Below, piece by piece: positions 12,425 to 20,700 of a DNA stretch of 64,000 bases. The stretch's first letter is position 1, and every line of letters begins with the position of its first letter. The position numbers were made by a program, and so were the translations under genes. Below the pieces are notes generated by a model. That model saw only the letters and a program-made list of their open reading frames with translations, did no database searches and was not told where the DNA came from. The stretch comes from Patescibacteria group bacterium (GTDB lineage: Bacteria; Patescibacteriota; Minisyncoccia; Phycocordibacterales; UBA2100): positions 1,636 through 65,635 of the forward strand of contig JAKFXQ010000001.1 in assembly GCA_021731295.1 (NCBI GenBank), given 5' to 3'.

Positions 12425-13531
12425 CTAGCGAATACTCATTGTCTCGCCAGCGAACTCGAGTCCTAGTGGCGAAATGACGACGCGCTTGCGGCCCGTCTCC
12501 ACGTAACCCGCATCCATGAGCTTGTCGCCGGTCTGGAAGCCGAGCGCGATAGCTTTCTCTGCATCGTCCGGATGCACGAAGATGGCAAAGCCCGCGCCCA
12601 TGTTGAACGTCTGGTACATCTCGCGCGTTTCAATCTTTCCCGCTTCTTGCATCATGCGGAAGATTGGTTGCTCGGGAGGCAGGCGTTCCAAGACATACGT
12701 GAACGCCTTCTCCAGACGCATGAGCTTGCGCCAGCCGTGACCGGTTACGTTCACGAGATACGAGATACGAATACCTTCGTCGAGAAGCTTCTCGATGAGC
12801 CGCGCGTAGATGCGCGTTGGCCGCAAGATGTCCTCGCCGTAGGTGAGCTTGGTATCAGGAACCGGCGTGTCGTATCGCTTCGGCAGTCTCTCGGCGATTT
12901 TGCGCGCGAGCGTGAGCCCGTTCGCGTGAATGCCATTCGACTGCGCGAAGAGAATGCGATGCCCGGGCTGGACATCGCCGCTGACTTTGCGCGTCTTCGG
13001 GAATATCTGCCCGACACACGCACACGACAGCGAGCATTCACCGGGCACGATGATGTCTCGAAGTACCGGCGTCTCACCGGGACCCCAAATCATCCGCGCG
13101 TCGTCACAGGCCGCCCGCCAACCCGTGCAGAGTTCGACCCAGCGTGGCTGGAATGCGAACCAGTCGGATTCGGCGACCTGCAGGTGCATGCTGGCATTCA
13201 CGGGCGCCGCACCAGAGGTAATGACGTCGTTCACTGCCATCGCGACCGTGTCGAACGCGTTGTGTCTCCAGAGATACTCTTTGCCACCCCACGCGAGACG
13301 TCGCGTCGCGACGTTCTTGGTGCCGAGGCCTTCATCCACGAACGCGAGGTACCGGTCAGGCAGCTCGATGAGGTGGGCACTTTCGCCACGGCTCGCGGTT
13401 ACGTCCACGACGCCAAGGCGCACGGCATTGCCCTTGGTCGCGTACGCGCAGACTTGCGCGTAGCGCTTGAACTCGTCCACCGGGTCATAGTCCACGCCGG
13501 CGTCTTTGTAGGTCAGACCTTTCGAAACCAT
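12425..13531 (-). CDS. purM: phosphoribosylformylglycinamidine cyclo-ligase-like protein (AIR synthase, PurM family)
   Basis: GLTYKDAGVDYD... (compare E. coli LSYKDAGVDIDAGN), GLGTKNV, VNDVITSGAAP, LRPTRIY, EMYQTFNMGAGF match PurM blocks. ORF trimmed to the PurM-like ATG; no other pur genes nearby. Confidence 0.7.
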   Translation of the reverse strand: MVSKGLTYKDAGVDYDPVDEFKRYAQVCAYATKGNAVRLGVVDVTASRGESAHLIELPDRYLAFVDEGLGTKNVATRRLAWGGKEYLWRHNAFDTVAMAVNDVITSGAAPVNASMHLQVAESDWFAFQPRWVELCTGWRAACDDARMIWGPGETPVLRDIIVPGECSLSCACVGQIFPKTRKVSGDVQPGHRILFAQSNGIHANGLTLARKIAERLPKRYDTPVPDTKLTYGEDILRPTRIYARLIEKLLDEGIRISYLVNVTGHGWRKLMRLEKAFTYVLERLPPEQPIFRMMQEAGKIETREMYQTFNMGAGFAIFVHPDDAEKAIALGFQTGDKLMDAGYVETGRKRVVISPLGLEFAGETMSIR

Positions 13532-13599
13532 TTGTCTGTACTCCCTATGTGACCGCCCATGCGGTCCCGCGGGCACTCTGACACCACTGCGTATGTGGG

Positions 13600-13875
13600 T
13601 CAACGCTTCGGCTCCTCGATATCTCGCGGCTTTAACTCCCACCAAAATTTTTTACTGAAGTTCTTTGAGTCGCCGCAGACACGTTTTAAGTAGTAGAGGT
13701 CTTTGGTCGGTATGCCTTCGAGTATTTTTCCCATGTGCGCCATGGAGATTGGCGGGTAGTTGTCGCGGAGGCGCTGCGCATTCAAACGCTCGCAGAAATG
13801 CTCCATCAGCTCACCCCTTTCGGTCGCCCGAACGCGCTGTTGGGGGGTCTTTAGGTGGACTTGTATGTGCTTCAT
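13600..13875 (-). CDS. hypothetical protein (91 aa from MKHIQVHLKTPQQRV...)
   Basis: ORF 13600..13950 trimmed to an internal ATG to avoid overlap with the upstream structured region; no recognisable domain. Confidence 0.35.
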   Translation of the reverse strand: MKHIQVHLKTPQQRVRATERGELMEHFCERLNAQRLRDNYPPISMAHMGKILEGIPTKDLYYLKRVCGDSKNFSKKFWWELKPRDIEEPKR

Positions 13876-17474: not shown

Positions 17475-18080
17475 GTGAATATGTATACGTGCATAGTAGC
17501 ACGTACGACACTTTCGCCATGGCACAATGTGCCGATGGACGCTCTTTTGGAGTGGGACACAGGGATGGCCGCCATCCTCTACTACATCGGCCGGATGCTC
17601 CCTGGCGGAGACATGCTCATTGTCGGCGTTGGCATGTACGCAACATTCGCTCTCGCCGCGCTCGGTGCCCTCTGGCTCATGCGCGCCGTTTGGCTCAAAG
17701 ACCCTCGCGTCATGGGGATTGTCTGGGCCGTATGCGGTGCGCTCGTTGCCCGTTTTGGTATTACCGAAGTCCTACAGTTCATTGTCGCCCGAGAGCGCCC
17801 GTACATGACGCTTAATCTCGACCCCCTCATCCTTCAGACCGACTATTCGTTCCCGTCTGGCCATGCGACCTTCTTTTTCGCCCTCGCCATGGGCCTCATG
17901 TACGTCGATCGTCGCCTCGGTCTCGCCTTTTTCGGCATTGCTGCCGCCATTTCCGTTGCCCGGATTATGGCTGGTGTGCACTACCCATTCGACATCCTCG
18001 GCGGTGCCCTTGTGGGCATCCTGACGAGTGCTGTGGTTATGTCTCTGCGAGGATTGAAATCTATTCCCCGTCGGCTATAA
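17475..18080 (+). CDS. PAP2-family phosphatase (phosphatidic acid / undecaprenyl-diphosphate phosphatase-like)
   Basis: PAP2 motifs SFPSGH and ARIMAGVHYPFD; multiple TM helices. An alternative start exists at 17535. Confidence 0.75.
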   Translation: MNMYTCIVARTTLSPWHNVPMDALLEWDTGMAAILYYIGRMLPGGDMLIVGVGMYATFALAALGALWLMRAVWLKDPRVMGIVWAVCGALVARFGITEVLQFIVARERPYMTLNLDPLILQTDYSFPSGHATFFFALAMGLMYVDRRLGLAFFGIAAAISVARIMAGVHYPFDILGGALVGILTSAVVMSLRGLKSIPRRL

Positions 18081-18113
18081 TCCCGCCACGTGGCAACACG
18101 CTATTCCCTCGGT

Positions 18114-18154
18114 ACCTGCCTGCCGGCAGGCAGGGCTCAATGGTTGAATCCATT
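18114..18154 (+). other. 20-nt perfect palindrome (cctgcctgcc/ggcaggcagg), then a 13-nt copy of the tRNA-Asn D-arm (gctcaatggttga), then IR caatgg-ttgaat-ccattg
   Basis: Direct reading. 18134-18146 is identical to 18203-18215 inside tRNA-Asn. Not a foldable tRNA. Confidence 0.5.
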
Positions 18155-18193
18155 GCTCGAATCGAGAAGCCGGAAAGGTGCACGTAAACATAT

Positions 18194-18265
18194 TCCCCGG
18201 TAGCTCAATGGTTGAGCACCTCGCTGTTAACGAGGGGGCTGTAGGTTCGAGTCCTACCCGGGGAG
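18194..18265 (+). tRNA. tRNA-Asn (anticodon GUU)
   Basis: Acceptor UCCCCGG/CCGGGGA, D-arm GCUC-AAUGGUU-GAGC, anticodon loop CUGUUAA, T-arm GUAGGTTCGAGTCCTAC, discriminator G. CCA not encoded. Confidence 0.85.
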
Positions 18266-18276
18266 CAGATTAATCT

Positions 18277-18313
18277 TGTGGAACTGACCCGGTCCCGTCA
18301 GGCGGGGTCAGTT
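18277..18313 (+). terminator. 11-bp stem hairpin between tRNA-Asn and the convergent 196-aa gene (no U-tract)
   Basis: ggaactgaccc-ggtcccgtcaggcg-gggtcagttcc. Confidence 0.35.
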
Positions 18314-18329
18314 CCGGAACACAAAAGAC

Positions 18330-18920
18330 TTAGAAGGGTTTGTTGACTAGCAGTGTGTGAATCATCGGCGCGAGTTGCGTGATGAGCTGCGCAAAACCCT
18401 GAACATCGGCAAGACCTTGTATCGTTTTCCACGCCGCGCTAATAATGTTGCGGTTGGGCTTTGTTTTTCCAATCTGACTTGCGAGAGCCTCAACGTCTGA
18501 TTTGTAGTCGCTCTTTGCCTCGGGCGTGAGCCTCGTCGTTTTCTCAATTTTCTCAAAAAGCTCCGATAAAGAAGCATCGAGATTCACGACCGATTGGTTG
18601 ACGGTCGACCGATCGCCGAAAGAAAGGTTATGAATCGGTGAATTGGTGATGTTGAGGGTCCTCTTATCGATCTTCACGTTCTTTGTGCTGTTGACCTGCG
18701 TTATCGTCTGGACAGAAGCTAGAGACCGTCGATCTTCAGGGTCGAGTTTTGGCATGATGGAAGTGCCATGGCTCTCTGCGTACAGTTGTGCTGCCGCGTT
18801 TGGTGTTAGCCCGCTATGCTTTCGACGAAGTTCTGAGAGGCGCGGCCTGATTTTCTCCGGCGTCTTCCCGGTACGTTCCTTCAATATCCGCAAAATGTCA
18901 GAATTGAGCTTGTCGGCCAT
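18330..18920 (-). CDS. hypothetical protein (196 aa), last gene of the tandem-HTH operon
   Basis: MADKLNSDILRILKERTGKTPEKIRPRLSELRR...; no recognisable domain. Start lies 2 nt after the stop of the preceding HTH gene; lower GC than the flanks. Confidence 0.55.
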   Translation of the reverse strand: MADKLNSDILRILKERTGKTPEKIRPRLSELRRKHSGLTPNAAAQLYAESHGTSIMPKLDPEDRRSLASVQTITQVNSTKNVKIDKRTLNITNSPIHNLSFGDRSTVNQSVVNLDASLSELFEKIEKTTRLTPEAKSDYKSDVEALASQIGKTKPNRNIISAAWKTIQGLADVQGFAQLITQLAPMIHTLLVNKPF

Positions 18921-18922
18921 GG

Positions 18923-19093
18923 TTATTTCTTGCCTTTCTTCGGGGAAAGGATACGGCTCACAATTGCAGGATCGACCCCTAACACATCTGCAATACGTCT
19001 ACCCTGCACCCCTTGATGATTCAGTCCGAGGACGAGAAGACGCTTAATCTGCTCAAGAAGCTCCACCTGTCCTTGTTCGTTCATTTTTGCCAT
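18923..19093 (-). CDS. small HTH protein, paralog 1 (56 aa)
   Basis: MAKMNEQGQVELLEQIKRLLVLGLNHQGVQGRRIADVLGVDPAIVSRILSPKKGKK; complete ORF below the 60-aa cutoff; 3-nt gap to the next gene. Confidence 0.55.
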   Translation of the reverse strand: MAKMNEQGQVELLEQIKRLLVLGLNHQGVQGRRIADVLGVDPAIVSRILSPKKGKK

Positions 19094-19096
19094 ATA

Positions 19097-19276
19097 TTAT
19101 TGTGGTTTTTTAGTGCCTTTTAGAAAGGCGTTTACCATTGCGGTATTCATCTTCACTTTCTTTCCGATCTCTGCCTGTGGCACGCCGAGCTTAAAAAGCT
19201 CCAGGATGAGGAGTTTTTTAAGAAGACCTACGTCTCCTTCCTGGGCGTCACCTGTGGATTTAGTATTCTTCGCCAT
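19097..19276 (-). CDS. small HTH protein, paralog 2 (59 aa)
   Basis: MAKNTKSTGDAQEGDVGLLKKLLILELFKLGVPQAEIGKKVKMNTAMVNAFLKGTKKPQ; hand-translated and frame-checked (180 nt). Confidence 0.55.
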   Translation of the reverse strand: MAKNTKSTGDAQEGDVGLLKKLLILELFKLGVPQAEIGKKVKMNTAMVNAFLKGTKKPQ

Positions 19277-19278
19277 AA

Positions 19279-19485
19279 TTATTTTTTCTTACTTTTAATG
19301 CGACTTTTTAAAACCGAGACCGTGCCCGGCGTAGCGCCGAGTATCTCGGCTATCTCTCCCGTTGAAAGTCCAAGGCGAGAAAGGCGTGCCACACCGTCCT
19401 GCACACTCTCGTCACCTTTTAACTGCAACGCGATGAGTGCGCTTAACTTTCGGGATATTTCTTTCAGTAGTTCGGTTTCGTTCAT
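19279..19485 (-). CDS. small HTH protein, paralog 3 (68 aa), sigma70-region-4-like
   Basis: ...LSRLGLSTGEIAEILGATPGTVSVLKSRIKSKKK resembles sigma70 region 4.2 / LuxR-type HTH. Confidence 0.6.
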   Translation of the reverse strand: MNETELLKEISRKLSALIALQLKGDESVQDGVARLSRLGLSTGEIAEILGATPGTVSVLKSRIKSKKK

Positions 19486-19488
19486 ACC

Positions 19489-19722
19489 TTACTTTTTGGC
19501 AGCGCGTCTTATAGCAACCAGTTCTTTATTAATATGGCCTGAGGTCTTGCCAACAATCGCCGCAATCTCAACCGGGCGCACACCAAGACCGTCAAGAATC
19601 GCGATTTGCTCCTTAAGAGGAAGACCCGCGGTGTCCCGTGACACTGAACGCAGGAGAAGAGCTATTACCACTTCCATTTTTTTGTTAAGCTCGACGAGCT
19701 GTTCAAATTCTGATGTAGTCAT
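19489..19722 (-). CDS. small HTH protein, paralog 4 (77 aa), first gene of the operon
   Basis: ...LDGLGVRPVEIAAIVGKTSGHINKELVAIRRAAKK; promoter immediately upstream. Confidence 0.6.
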   Translation of the reverse strand: MTTSEFEQLVELNKKMEVVIALLLRSVSRDTAGLPLKEQIAILDGLGVRPVEIAAIVGKTSGHINKELVAIRRAAKK

Positions 19723-19752
19723 AATGAGTAAGTATGTTAACTGTACTATCCC

Positions 19753-19780
19753 ATTATCCTATCTGAATCAGGCCTGTCAA
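19753..19780 (-). promoter_or_regulatory. near-consensus sigma70 promoter (TTGACA-16-GATAAT) for the HTH operon
   Basis: Minus strand cttgacaggcctgattcagataggataatggg, about 30 nt upstream of the ATG at 19722. Confidence 0.6.
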
Positions 19781-19898
19781 GCAGTTTTGTTAAGATACCA
19801 GGGCTCAAAGTGACCTGTCCCCGTCCAAAATACCTTAACAAAGTCGCCAAAGAACCCTTGTGGTGCTTGGAGACCCAAAGTTGACGACCTGTGTGGGG

Positions 19899-19926
19899 AG
19901 CCAACGCCGGAACGACCGCACACATG
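19899..19926. repeat. perfect 12-bp-arm palindrome gaacgaccgcac-acat-gtgcggtcgttc
   Basis: Direct reading; no adjacent U-tract on either strand, so it is not a classic terminator; candidate operator or recombination site. Confidence 0.6.
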
Positions 19927-20056
19927 TGCGGTCGTTCTGCGTTAGCGCTCCCTTTCGGCAGGACTCGAACTCCGAAGATATGTCTGCCGATTTCGCTCGA
20001 CACGGACATCACATTTTGGCACTATCGAATCTGCGAAGCGCTAGCGGAGGTATCGA

Positions 20057-20276
20057 CATGCGAATCGTTGCCATAGAGAGCAGTGCACTTTGGACTGGTG
20101 CTATCCAGGAAAGAATCTATCTGGATGTTCCAGAGGTGATGGACCTTCAGAAAGAAGAGGACAGCTGGTTCGCCGCGGGCGGCGGAACACCACGAGACTT
20201 CGCGAATTTCTTAATCGCGAAGGGCGCGCAAGAGTTCACGACTATTGAGACTTGGAACATCAACTACCAGTCGTGA
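20057..20276 (+). CDS. hypothetical small protein (73 aa) with strong SD and terminator
   Basis: GGAGGT SD 7 nt upstream of ATG (MRIVAIESSALWTGAIQERIYLDVPEVMDLQKEEDSWFAAGGG...); rho-independent terminator follows. Confidence 0.6.
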
Positions 20277-20299
20277 CGCTTCTGCCGGCAGGACACAAT

Positions 20300-20331
20300 G
20301 GGCCGCCCCGTCTGGGGCGGCTCTGTTTTTT
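20300..20331 (+). terminator. rho-independent terminator
   Basis: GCCGCCCC-gtct-GGGGCGGC followed by tctgtttttt. Confidence 0.75.
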
Positions 20332-20361
20332 GGGCCGCGGCACGAGGTGTACACTAACCCC

Positions 20362-20700
20362 ATGTGGATGAGTACTCGCCCGCTTCTGCTCGGCACTGCC
20401 TTCGCACTCCCCTTTTTCATTGCAAACGTGCTGGTCGCGATGCACTCACCCCTTTTCCTTTCCCTCATACGCCCGTCGGGAGAAAGCTCGGGGGGCGAAC
20501 AGATTCTCGTACTCGTACTCATCGCACTCGTCGGCATTGGTGGATTGTTTGCACTCTTGCCCCTGGTGAGCGAACGGAAGTTCTACACAGTGAATGCATT
20601 GGTAGGCATAACGATGATTCTTTTCGCAATCTTCGCTGGCTACGGACTCGGTGAAGATGTCTACCACTGCAACATCCTGCAAATCCCAAATTGTGATTGA
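20362..20700 (+). CDS. hypothetical small membrane protein (about 3 TM)
   Basis: MWMSTRPLLLGTAFALPFFIANVLVAM...; trimmed from ORF 20245. Confidence 0.4.
   Translation: MWMSTRPLLLGTAFALPFFIANVLVAMHSPLFLSLIRPSGESSGGEQILVLVLIALVGIGGLFALLPLVSERKFYTVNALVGITMILFAIFAGYGLGEDVYHCNILQIPNCD

Follow-up and report, generated by a model that had tools for sequence, protein, structure and literature searches.

What purpose is served by several miniature helix-turn-helix (HTH) genes that stand in a row ahead of a single larger gene? This question is raised by a locus within a 64,000-nucleotide (nt) stretch of contig JAKFXQ010000001.1 (positions 1,636 to 65,635; assembly GCA_021731295.1) from a Patescibacteria group bacterium, henceforth referred to as the window. 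An earlier note, made from the sequence alone, had described four consecutive open reading frames (ORFs) of 56, 59, 68 and 77 amino acids (aa) with a common HTH plan at 18923–19722; these ORFs are confirmed, lie on the minus strand, and are designated A to D in the order of transcription. Together with a fifth gene, P5, they form a five-gene operon, A-B-C-D-P5 (window 19722–18330). The four-gene unit of that note is therefore retained as regards its ORFs but is too short, since P5, a promoter and candidate operators belong to it, and variable immune-type effectors take part at related loci. In the reading preferred here, to which a probability of about 0.6 is assigned, the operon is an autoregulated conflict/defence cassette, the conserved core of which is a multi-paralog HTH module. 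Its genes are the following.

19489 to 19722, minus strand: gene A, 77 aa, the lead and most conserved mini-HTH gene (ORF list)
19279 to 19485, minus strand: gene B, 68 aa, mini-HTH (ORF list)
19097 to 19276, minus strand: gene C, 59 aa, short three-helix mini-HTH (ORF list)
18923 to 19093, minus strand: gene D, 56 aa, short three-helix mini-HTH (ORF list)
18330 to 18920, minus strand: P5, the terminal gene, 196 aa, with its ATG 2 nt past the stop codon of D

Conservation and ancestry of the small genes

Genes A to D follow one another on the minus strand with intergenic gaps of 3, 2 and 3 nt, and their aligned products have in common a hydrophobic helix, an HTH and a Lys/Arg-rich basic tail, to which A and B add a further N-terminal hydrophobic helix. 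The abutting genes, the single predicted promoter and translational coupling bear out the suggestion that these stand-alone HTH genes are carried on one messenger RNA. All four are real genes under strong purifying selection. When the window genes were compared with their orthologs in L006, L021 and L002 (L numbers denote related loci throughout), proportions of nonsynonymous differences (pN) of 0.035–0.25 stood against proportions of synonymous differences (pS) of 0.5–0.95, synonymous sites being close to saturation, and the ratio of nonsynonymous to synonymous substitution rates (dN/dS), where calculable, was 0.04–0.08 for A–D, with 0.04–0.07 for A, approximately 0.05–0.08 for B, and 0.07 for D against L006; for C against L006, pN was 0.20 and pS was 0.83, and the dN/dS of P5 was 0.04.

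A profile built from the four window sequences retrieved 154 small proteins of 42–100 aa, all of them unannotated and several of them pairs encoded on one contig; among the 120 hits listed, 101 are A-type, 9 B-type, 9 D-type and 1 C-type. B-type orthologs show 60–97% identity and D-type orthologs 73–89%, and orthologs of gene C are found at the matching position in L004, L006, L012, L018, L031 and others. An A-type profile searched against 1.84 billion representatives yielded 600 clusters at 50% identity with expectation values (E) ≤ 1e-3, all stand-alone and 45–128 aa in length. A narrower profile of close A-type relatives matched 4 genomes among genome contigs, and an exact look-up of the window proteins returned a 777-bp contig as the sole match for gene A and none for P5.

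The idea that the four genes are a tandem quadruplication has to be given up as far as a local event is meant: A–D are ancient paralogs, and a recent local quadruplication is ruled out because each copy has its own orthologs elsewhere, while the number of copies (2–6) and their order vary. In HHalign comparisons of family against family, in which each window ORF was represented by its ortholog family, the probabilities were 99.2% for A-B, 98.4% for C-D, 96.4% for A-C, 95.3% for B-C, 95.1% for B-D and 93.0% for A-D, with the families assigned by best BLAST hit, such that the separation of A from B may be slightly blurred. The MAFFT identity of the other three mini-HTH proteins to D is 36, 42 and 19%.

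Could these ORFs nevertheless have arisen by chance or as an annotation artefact, for instance as N-terminal fragments of an insertion sequence (IS) transposase or as antisense ORFs? They are very short, long ORFs run antisense to them on the plus strand, and weak matches occur to the transposase-type families HTH_23 (19.0 bits for gene D, and 18.4 bits, versus a gathering threshold (GA) of 24.6) and HTH_28 (13.6 versus 25). The explanation is excluded by dN/dS values of 0.04–0.08 at saturated synonymous sites, by hundreds of length-conserved homologs and by the conserved gene order; as for transposase fragments in particular, all such matches are below threshold, no DDE or other transposase domain is present in the flanks, and the homologs are independent full-length small genes. 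The earlier note had named poor conservation, relaxed synonymous sites or an IS-transposase relationship as grounds for abandoning its proposal; what was found is strong conservation, strong synonymous-site constraint and no such relationship.

Two plus-strand ORFs, at 18643–19047 (134 aa) and 19298–19813 (171 aa), overlap the cassette in antisense and are almost certainly spurious, because the minus-strand genes are under purifying selection; a filter on ORF length would favour them over the real genes. The expectation that default annotation misses the two shortest genes holds only partly, as public gene calls at related loci list 56- and 59-aa genes.

Related cassettes in other genomes

The cassette belongs to a widespread, mobile and unannotated family in uncultured bacteria. 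A metagenome scan added 80 related loci, and all of the 97 loci (of 101) that have sequence left after gene A carry at least one further mini-HTH paralog directly downstream; in the other four, which have no second paralog, the sequence ends within 89 nt of gene A. Gene A always comes first in an array of 2–6 mini-HTH paralogs in total, the number and order of which vary by locus (A-B-C-D, A-B-D, A-B-C-E-D and A-X-C-B(-D), with E and X being types absent from the window); gene D is usually the final small gene ahead of the terminal gene, and stop and start codons abut or overlap throughout. This gene order is kept amid different flanks in L006, L009–L012, L015 and L018. The arrangements include the following.

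L006–L008: genes of 81, 71, 59, 56 and 196 aa
L009–L011: genes of 83, 69, 58 and 58 aa, then a 235-aa Hypoth_Ymh protein
L012–L017: five small genes, then a 281–284-aa TIR protein
L018–L020: four small genes followed by a 292-aa and a Schlafen/AlbA_2 protein, with an integrase adjacent
JGI contig: genes of 76, 74, 61 and 299 aa

At the loci of Candidatus Lloydbacteria, six small genes precede P5. The other relatives stem from soil, peat and groundwater metagenomes and from metagenome-assembled genomes labelled Vulcanimicrobiota, "Pseudomonadota" and "Bordetella", the binning of which is uncertain. No relatives were found in a scan of IMG/VR, and tblastn of gene A against PLSDB plasmids and GenBank phages gave no match.

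Terminal genes and their effector domains

The terminal genes of these cassettes are composed of one of two constant N-terminal adaptors and a swappable C-terminal module. A terminal ORF was defined as one of at least 90 aa that starts no more than 200 nt from the last small gene; 63 loci have such an ORF, further terminal genes were found by hand, and domain searches covered 50 unique terminal proteins. Among these 50, Pfam recognized Hypoth_Ymh in 10, HEPN_Swt1 in 5, TIR in 4, SLFN_AlbA_2 in 2 and SIR2_2 in 1, whereas PADLOC recognized PD-Lambda-3_B in 8, PDC-M34B in 5 (E 1.8e-42), PDC-S66 in 4 (E 1.9e-62 at related loci), ThsB-type TIR in 4 and PDC-M14B in 2, its matches being confined to the C-terminal domains. 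An Rx4-6H motif is conserved in Ymh, which is one of the HEPN families (PMC3710099). In the terminal-protein sequences, RNRTHH, which is of this type, and the TIR motif W..E.EL are both visible.

About a dozen terminal proteins carry a conserved "KDWGGE..D ... AFKG" domain, which, from its likeness to the Mrr catalytic motif, is a candidate PD-(D/E)xK-like nuclease; a 299-aa protein of this kind has no Pfam match and no significant match in the PDB. Alignment reveals a winged-HTH-like N-terminal adaptor common to the TIR and KDWGGE proteins, and a small helical N-terminal adaptor common to the HEPN proteins and P5 of the window. The three-helix adaptor at the N-terminus of P5 aligns with the N-terminus of the HEPN effectors with an HHalign probability of 68% (E 5e-5, 64 columns).

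One terminal gene of the Ymh/HEPN type (L009:8820–9537, in a 268-kb contig) is frameshifted into 176 and 78 aa, which may represent effector inactivation or an assembly error; in L010 and L011, where the small genes are identical to those of L009, the Ymh/HEPN gene is intact (238 aa).

P5 itself belongs to a family of 163 homologs (183–199 aa, 58–90% identity), all of them unannotated and one of them from Candidatus Lloydbacteria, and its C-terminus (aa 105–189) matches the PADLOC candidate PDC-M14B (E 2e-7). Its AlphaFold2 (AF2) model, with a predicted local distance difference test score (pLDDT) of 69.5, comprises an N-terminal three-helix domain, a linker (residues 72–106) that is left unmodelled at pLDDT < 50, and a C-terminal four-helix bundle. 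Within this linker, the motif NSPIHNLSFGDR and its neighbouring residues are invariant across 31 homologs (residues 93–104, window 18609–18644) and are likely to constitute an interaction or oligomerisation motif. The N-terminus (residues 1–60, window 18741–18920) resembles the AROD domain of Pyrococcus abyssi RPA in Foldseek (probability 0.93–0.99, 28% identity, E > 0.5), and the same region gives sub-threshold sequence matches (phmmer, E 0.069; NCBIfam PRK08402, E 0.012); profile and phmmer searches of the PDB with P5 returned nothing significant. L105 (6001–7282) and L106 carry, immediately downstream of a P5-type gene (192 aa), a Hypoth_Ymh/HEPN gene (233 aa) as a separate ORF; P5-type proteins can thus occur together with an enzymatic effector, and the role of P5, judged from L105, may be that of an adaptor and not of an effector.

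Promoter and candidate operators

The control region of the cassette spans 19731–19843 and contains the features listed below, in which the operators are predicted boxes (GGTAnnTTAAC and its inverted copies) on both sides of the near-consensus promoter.

19831 to 19842, minus strand: candidate operator O1, an inverted copy of O2, 33 nt upstream of O2
19786 to 19799, minus strand: candidate operator O2, GGTATCTTAACAAA on the coding strand, abutting the −35 element; a position weight matrix (PWM) match
19753 to 19780, minus strand: sigma-70-type promoter, TTGACA-16 nt-GATAAT, 11/12 consensus positions
19731 to 19742, minus strand: candidate operator O3, AGTTAACATACT, an inverted copy between the −10 element and the ATG, PWM score 8.7 bits

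The promoter lies approximately 30 nt upstream of the gene A ATG and is the only minus-strand promoter-like site in 18000–20500; a TTGACA-like −35 element occurs at the equivalent relative position in most related loci, where the −10 element is also near consensus. When the regions upstream of gene A were compared across 58 non-redundant loci, an unsupervised Gibbs search revealed a 12-nt motif, TG[CT]TAAnnTAC[CT], for which the coding strand has GGTAnnTTARCA. In about 30 of the 58 it is found between −73 and −92 relative to the ATG, in fixed orientation and just upstream of the −35 element. The matrix derived from it finds weaker inverted copies at −16 to −25, and its site density is 7.3 per kb upstream of gene A versus 0.33 per kb in long loci. 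A generic count of inverted repeats (8 nt, at most 1 mismatch) gave no separation, with 52/58 real versus about 48/58 shuffled upstream regions.

Within the whole 64-kb window, the best motif match is O2 (19788–19799, 14.9 bits). O1 and O2 form a 12-nt, 92% complementary inverted repeat (19786–19797 / 19831–19842), which is most likely the "12-bp palindrome" that had been proposed as an operator to be sought elsewhere; exact TGTTAAGRTA occurs twice in the window, at O1 and at O2, and an O1/O2-type repeat is also present in the close relative L021. O3 overlaps the translation-start region of gene A, and its equivalents in many loci are YTAAY-N3-4-CTAC[CT] boxes 3–8 nt ahead of the ATG. No Shine-Dalgarno sequence was found upstream of gene A (19723–19745, and the equivalent region in many loci), where a conserved CTAC[CT] stands 3–8 nt before the ATG instead; the internal cassette genes likewise have no clear Shine-Dalgarno sequence, and their translation probably depends on stop-start coupling. 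In the A-X-C-B loci, which form a second class, the promoter is surrounded by nested inverted repeats, TCAATAA..AAGGTAAT ... ATTACCTT..TTATTGA, and both classes have a GGTA sub-site in common. Such two-part half-sites and several paralogs would fit a composite complex on the predicted operators.

A perfect 13+13-nt palindrome, GAACGACCGCACA nn TGTGCGGTCGTTC, is located at 19910–19937, approximately 130 nt upstream of the promoter; it has no flanking T-run and might act at the edge of the cassette either as an insulating terminator or as a binding site for a protein.

Fold of the mini-HTH proteins

The proteins had been called sigma70-region-4-like, a designation that suits their predicted tri-helical shape, whereas the thresholds of the family are not reached. 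None of A–D has an above-threshold match in Pfam, NCBIfam, PHROGs or PADLOC; the four window proteins find no model in PADLOC-DB v2 at E ≤ 0.1, nor do the mini-HTH proteins of L038 and L045 find a relevant one in PADLOC. For gene A there is no Pfam, NCBIfam or PADLOC match, and neither profile nor phmmer searches of the PDB returned a significant hit. Gene B is the sole mini-HTH with near-threshold similarity to sigma-70 region 4 or LuxR, scoring 24.1 bits for Sigma70_r4_2 (GA 25.7), 14.7 bits for Sigma70_r4 (GA 24.1) and 20.9 bits for GerE (GA 23.5), and A, C and D have no match to any of these three Pfam families. The NCBIfam sigma70-ECF score is 20.7 versus a cut-off of 42.9. Each of A–D contains one HTH, and no Sigma70_r2 (region 2) was found in them or in the neighbouring genes; HTH_3 and HTH_31 do not match A–D, and Xre-like-HTH is sub-threshold at E 0.08. 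Of the families for which the earlier note had recommended a profile search, sigma70_r4 and LuxR gave scores below threshold.

The AF2 model of gene A, built on a 35-sequence alignment, has a pLDDT of 82 and helices at residues 3–30, 36–45, 50–57 and 61–76, that is, a long N-terminal helix followed by a three-helix HTH. Foldseek aligns its HTH core locally to region 4 of SigD, SigC and SigE over 43–68 residues, and also to LuxR-type domains and MarR, with a root-mean-square deviation of 2–3 Å for the sigma and LuxR-type cores of 43–46 residues; the best E is 0.15, none is below 0.1, and MarR and LuxR folds score alike. "Sigma-4/LuxR-like tri-helical HTH" is a fair description of the predicted shape and does not denote family membership.

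From this resemblance a sensor by mimicry could be conceived, in which the mini-HTH proteins would imitate sigma region 4 or other HTH targets as decoys or guards, and their binding by a phage anti-sigma or anti-repressor protein would set the effector free or activate it. This comes near the anti-sigma or anti-repressor idea of the earlier note, whose graded set of such proteins gained no support. Below threshold, both sequence and fold indeed resemble sigma region 4 and LuxR-type HTHs most, several diverged paralogs would broaden the range of ligands, and two unrelated cassettes lie near rpoD. However, all of this similarity is under the family thresholds with no Foldseek E < 0.1, the proximity to rpoD amounts to two cases, and the conserved recognition helices, together with specific boxes at the cassette's own promoter, point to DNA binding in cis, which renders mimicry improbable. 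The loci concerned are L101–L104 (Candidatus Lloydbacteria, after rpoC-dnaG-rpoD) and L105, in which the cassette is situated 0.5–3 kb downstream of rpoD; these two cases may be due to chance.

Comparison with known systems

Controller (C) proteins of restriction-modification (R-M) systems, such as C.PvuII, C.AhdI and C.Esp1396I, are single Xre-type HTH dimers that are paired with a methyltransferase. The cassette is similar to them in its small stand-alone HTH gene upstream of, and co-transcribed with, a potentially lethal gene (here with 2–3 nt gaps and a single promoter), in the inverted candidate operator boxes (O1, O2, O3) around its own −35/−10 elements, and in being a mobile unit with often overlapping codons. 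It is unlike them in having 2–6 sigma-4/LuxR-like paralogs, no protective methylase, and HEPN/TIR/SIR2-type terminal genes; in the window cassette, neither a methyltransferase nor an HTH_3 or Xre match was found. By analogy, its logic most closely resembles that of an R-M controller protein or an HTH antitoxin expanded to a multi-paralog module, although neither accounts for 2–6 retained paralogs.

With the HEPN-toxin modules of type II toxin-antitoxin (TA) and abortive infection systems (Ymh, Swt1/Abi2; PMC3710099), the cassette shares the same HEPN families, a small upstream partner, mobility and a solitary occurrence. The partners in those known modules are MNT nucleotidyltransferases or single antitoxins, whereas the cassette has a mini-HTH array instead; Ymh, moreover, is reported solo or fused to pMORC, AbiJ-NTD1 or AbiTii (PMC3710099), not behind a mini-HTH array. 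These similarities are the basis for considering a selfish, TA-like addiction module without a dedicated anti-phage role, in which one or more labile mini-HTH antitoxins would act directly on the terminal protein to neutralize it and would also autoregulate the operon. In its favour, the small HTH genes stand ahead of a gene of the HEPN or another toxin type, with translational coupling to it, the predicted operator architecture is autoregulatory, and the cassettes are solitary and mobile amid housekeeping genes. Known type II modules, however, need one antitoxin rather than 2–6 conserved paralogs with their own orthologs, and partners such as TIR, SIR2 and Schlafen typically belong to defence systems and not to classical TA pairs, such that an addiction module is rather unlikely; it overlaps with the conflict/defence cassette preferred here because the boundary between TA and abortive infection is blurred.

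The C-terminal domains of the terminal proteins match the PADLOC models PDC-M14B, PDC-M34B, PDC-S66 and PD-Lambda-3_B, whereas the mini-HTH proteins, even beside effectors that match PDC-M34B, match no model; since PADLOC recognizes only the C-terminal effector domains, the array lies outside those candidate definitions. In helix order and size, the mini-HTH proteins are similar to sigma-70 region 4 and LuxR-GerE domains, from which they differ in being stand-alone, with no region 2, receiver or ligand domain. As in Thoeris and other TIR defence, the TIR effectors of L012–L017 match ThsB-type models (E 1e-30); unlike Thoeris, they have no ThsA (SIR2/SLOG) partner, their TIR is fused to the winged-HTH adaptor of the cassette behind five mini-HTH genes, and the window itself is without a TIR domain. 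The cassette is not described in any paper found by literature searches on the PDC names, Hypoth_Ymh, sigma-4 decoys and tandem HTH arrays, and we know of no precedent for several conserved HTH paralogs ahead of a single effector. The earlier remark that the arrangement is unmatched by characterised systems thus stands, as neither an above-threshold match in Pfam, NCBIfam, PHROGs or PADLOC nor a paper was found.

Proposed mechanism and its significance

In the conflict/defence cassette proposed here, the mini-HTH proteins, probably as a hetero-oligomer, would bind the composite operators, and the bound array would keep the strong promoter, and hence the toxic terminal gene, under tight autorepression. 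The adaptor domain of the effector may also dock on the mini-HTH complex. Disturbance of the complex by phage infection or transfer would then release the expression or activity of the effector, which would lead to growth arrest or abortive infection. A further-reaching version is tentative and on the unlikely side: the array would constitute a hetero-oligomeric, DNA-bound sensor platform of 3–6 sigma-4-like subunits that holds the effector through its adaptor and releases or activates it when phage factors attack, the triggers envisaged being anti-sigma or anti-repressor proteins, or competing DNA.

Several points weigh against the preferred reading. The defence role is deduced from the association with the effector domains TIR, HEPN, SIR2 and Schlafen at the level of sequence, and in P5 itself no toxic or enzymatic domain was recognized by library and structure searches; its part may be that of an adaptor or of an effector without enzymatic activity. 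The adaptors were considered as further mini-HTH copies and rejected as such (HHalign probabilities < 25%), and this unrelatedness to the mini-HTH families belongs on the same side. The operator PWM was trained on the sites that it scores, and the independent evidence for the operators consists of constant position and orientation only; moreover, the recognition helix of gene A, H/Y-[VI]-N-K-E-L, is nearly invariant across the operator classes. Hetero-oligomeric DNA binding by A–D is a presumption, plausible in view of translational coupling, composite operators and conserved gene order. In L036 (4980–5908), where the array A-B-B-C directly follows a cluster of five tRNA genes, the following 4.3 kb contain no effector-type gene on the strand of the array. 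Finally, most cassettes are situated amid housekeeping genes and not in recognizable defence islands.

The cassette probably represents a conflict or anti-phage system that has not been described before and whose multi-protein control module is unusual. Modular conflict/defence cassettes as such are already known, and the novelty suggested by the comparisons resides in the multi-paralog HTH core. If the proposal is true, current catalogues have missed a family of conflict/defence cassettes because its core consists of 55–80-aa proteins without a Pfam family, and because it occurs in uncultured soil, peat and groundwater bacteria, not in model organisms, plasmids or phages. The swappable TIR, HEPN, SIR2, Schlafen and nuclease-like modules on two constant adaptors would amount to a natural experiment in effector exchange, and the cassette would provide the first functional context for several PADLOC "candidate" effector families. 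The presence of several conserved HTH paralogs per single effector poses a clear and testable mechanistic question, and a cassette of about 1.5 kb is easily synthesised and tested. The sensor platform, if true, would be a principle of sensing new to bacterial immunity, occurring mainly in uncultured lineages, Patescibacteria among them.

Insertion beside tRNA-Asn and genomic surroundings

The operon constitutes a low-GC insert of approximately 1.5 kb that adjoins a tRNA gene, and precisely over this block the GC content drops from about 0.55 to 0.46. Two features lie at its downstream edge.

18194 to 18266, plus strand: tRNA-Asn(GTT), convergent with the operon, at the edge of the low-GC insert (ARAGORN and Rfam)
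18280 to 18315: inverted repeat with 11-nt arms, GGAACTGACCC / GGGTCAGTTCC, between the P5 stop codon and the tRNA-Asn 3' end (read from the sequence)

The inverted repeat probably terminates both convergent transcripts, and it is not a canonical intrinsic terminator because it has no T-run. The cassette adjoins tRNA-Asn also in L003, L006 and L007; the DNA homology between the window and L006 is limited to 19693–18187, that is, the cassette and the tRNA-Asn, and the other flanks differ. In L023, L036, L069 and L089, tRNAs are found within 1.2 kb of the cassette. This adjacency suggests a tRNA-linked insertion, but the tRNA end was not found repeated in direct orientation. An inverted copy of the tRNA T-arm at 19957–19970 was considered as the remnant of an attachment site and rejected: its T-stem is unpaired, Rfam and ARAGORN find no tRNA there, and about 5 such 14-nt matches with at most 1 mismatch are expected by chance in the region.

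Such surroundings raise the alternative that the array is the regulatory switch of a cryptic integrative element or phage satellite, in which the mini-HTH proteins would act as Cro/CI/Xis-like regulators and the terminal genes would be uncoupled cargo. In addition to the tRNA adjacency in the window and several loci, an integrase adjoins the cassette in L018–L020, which lie in an integrative-element context with integrase, resolvase and TrwB, and phage early regions typically contain clusters of small HTH genes. Yet genes for recombinases, replication or structural proteins are absent from the conserved unit both in the window and in most loci, the homologous block being only about 1.5 kb; the paralogs are co-directional, not divergent repressor/antirepressor pairs; and, as noted above, no relatives were found in IMG/VR, GenBank phages and PLSDB plasmids. 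With an effector-type gene immediately downstream and start-stop coupled in dozens of unrelated contexts, this alternative has only a slim chance of being correct.

The window flanks of the cassette carry no recombinase and consist of ordinary chromosomal genes, namely PAP2, a hibernation factor, a formyltransferase, GrpB, peptidase S51, PBP2 and PurM. The housekeeping proteins of the window (12428–13645 and the whole) score well under the NCBIfam equivalog cut-offs, with 372 bits versus 455 for PBP2 and 166 versus 236 for PurM. The closest named homologs of PurM are from Patescibacteria, with 46–50% identity. These values hint, if weakly, at an uncultured, deep-branching and possibly CPR-like host, and the GC content of the window, at approximately 55%, is unusually high for the group.

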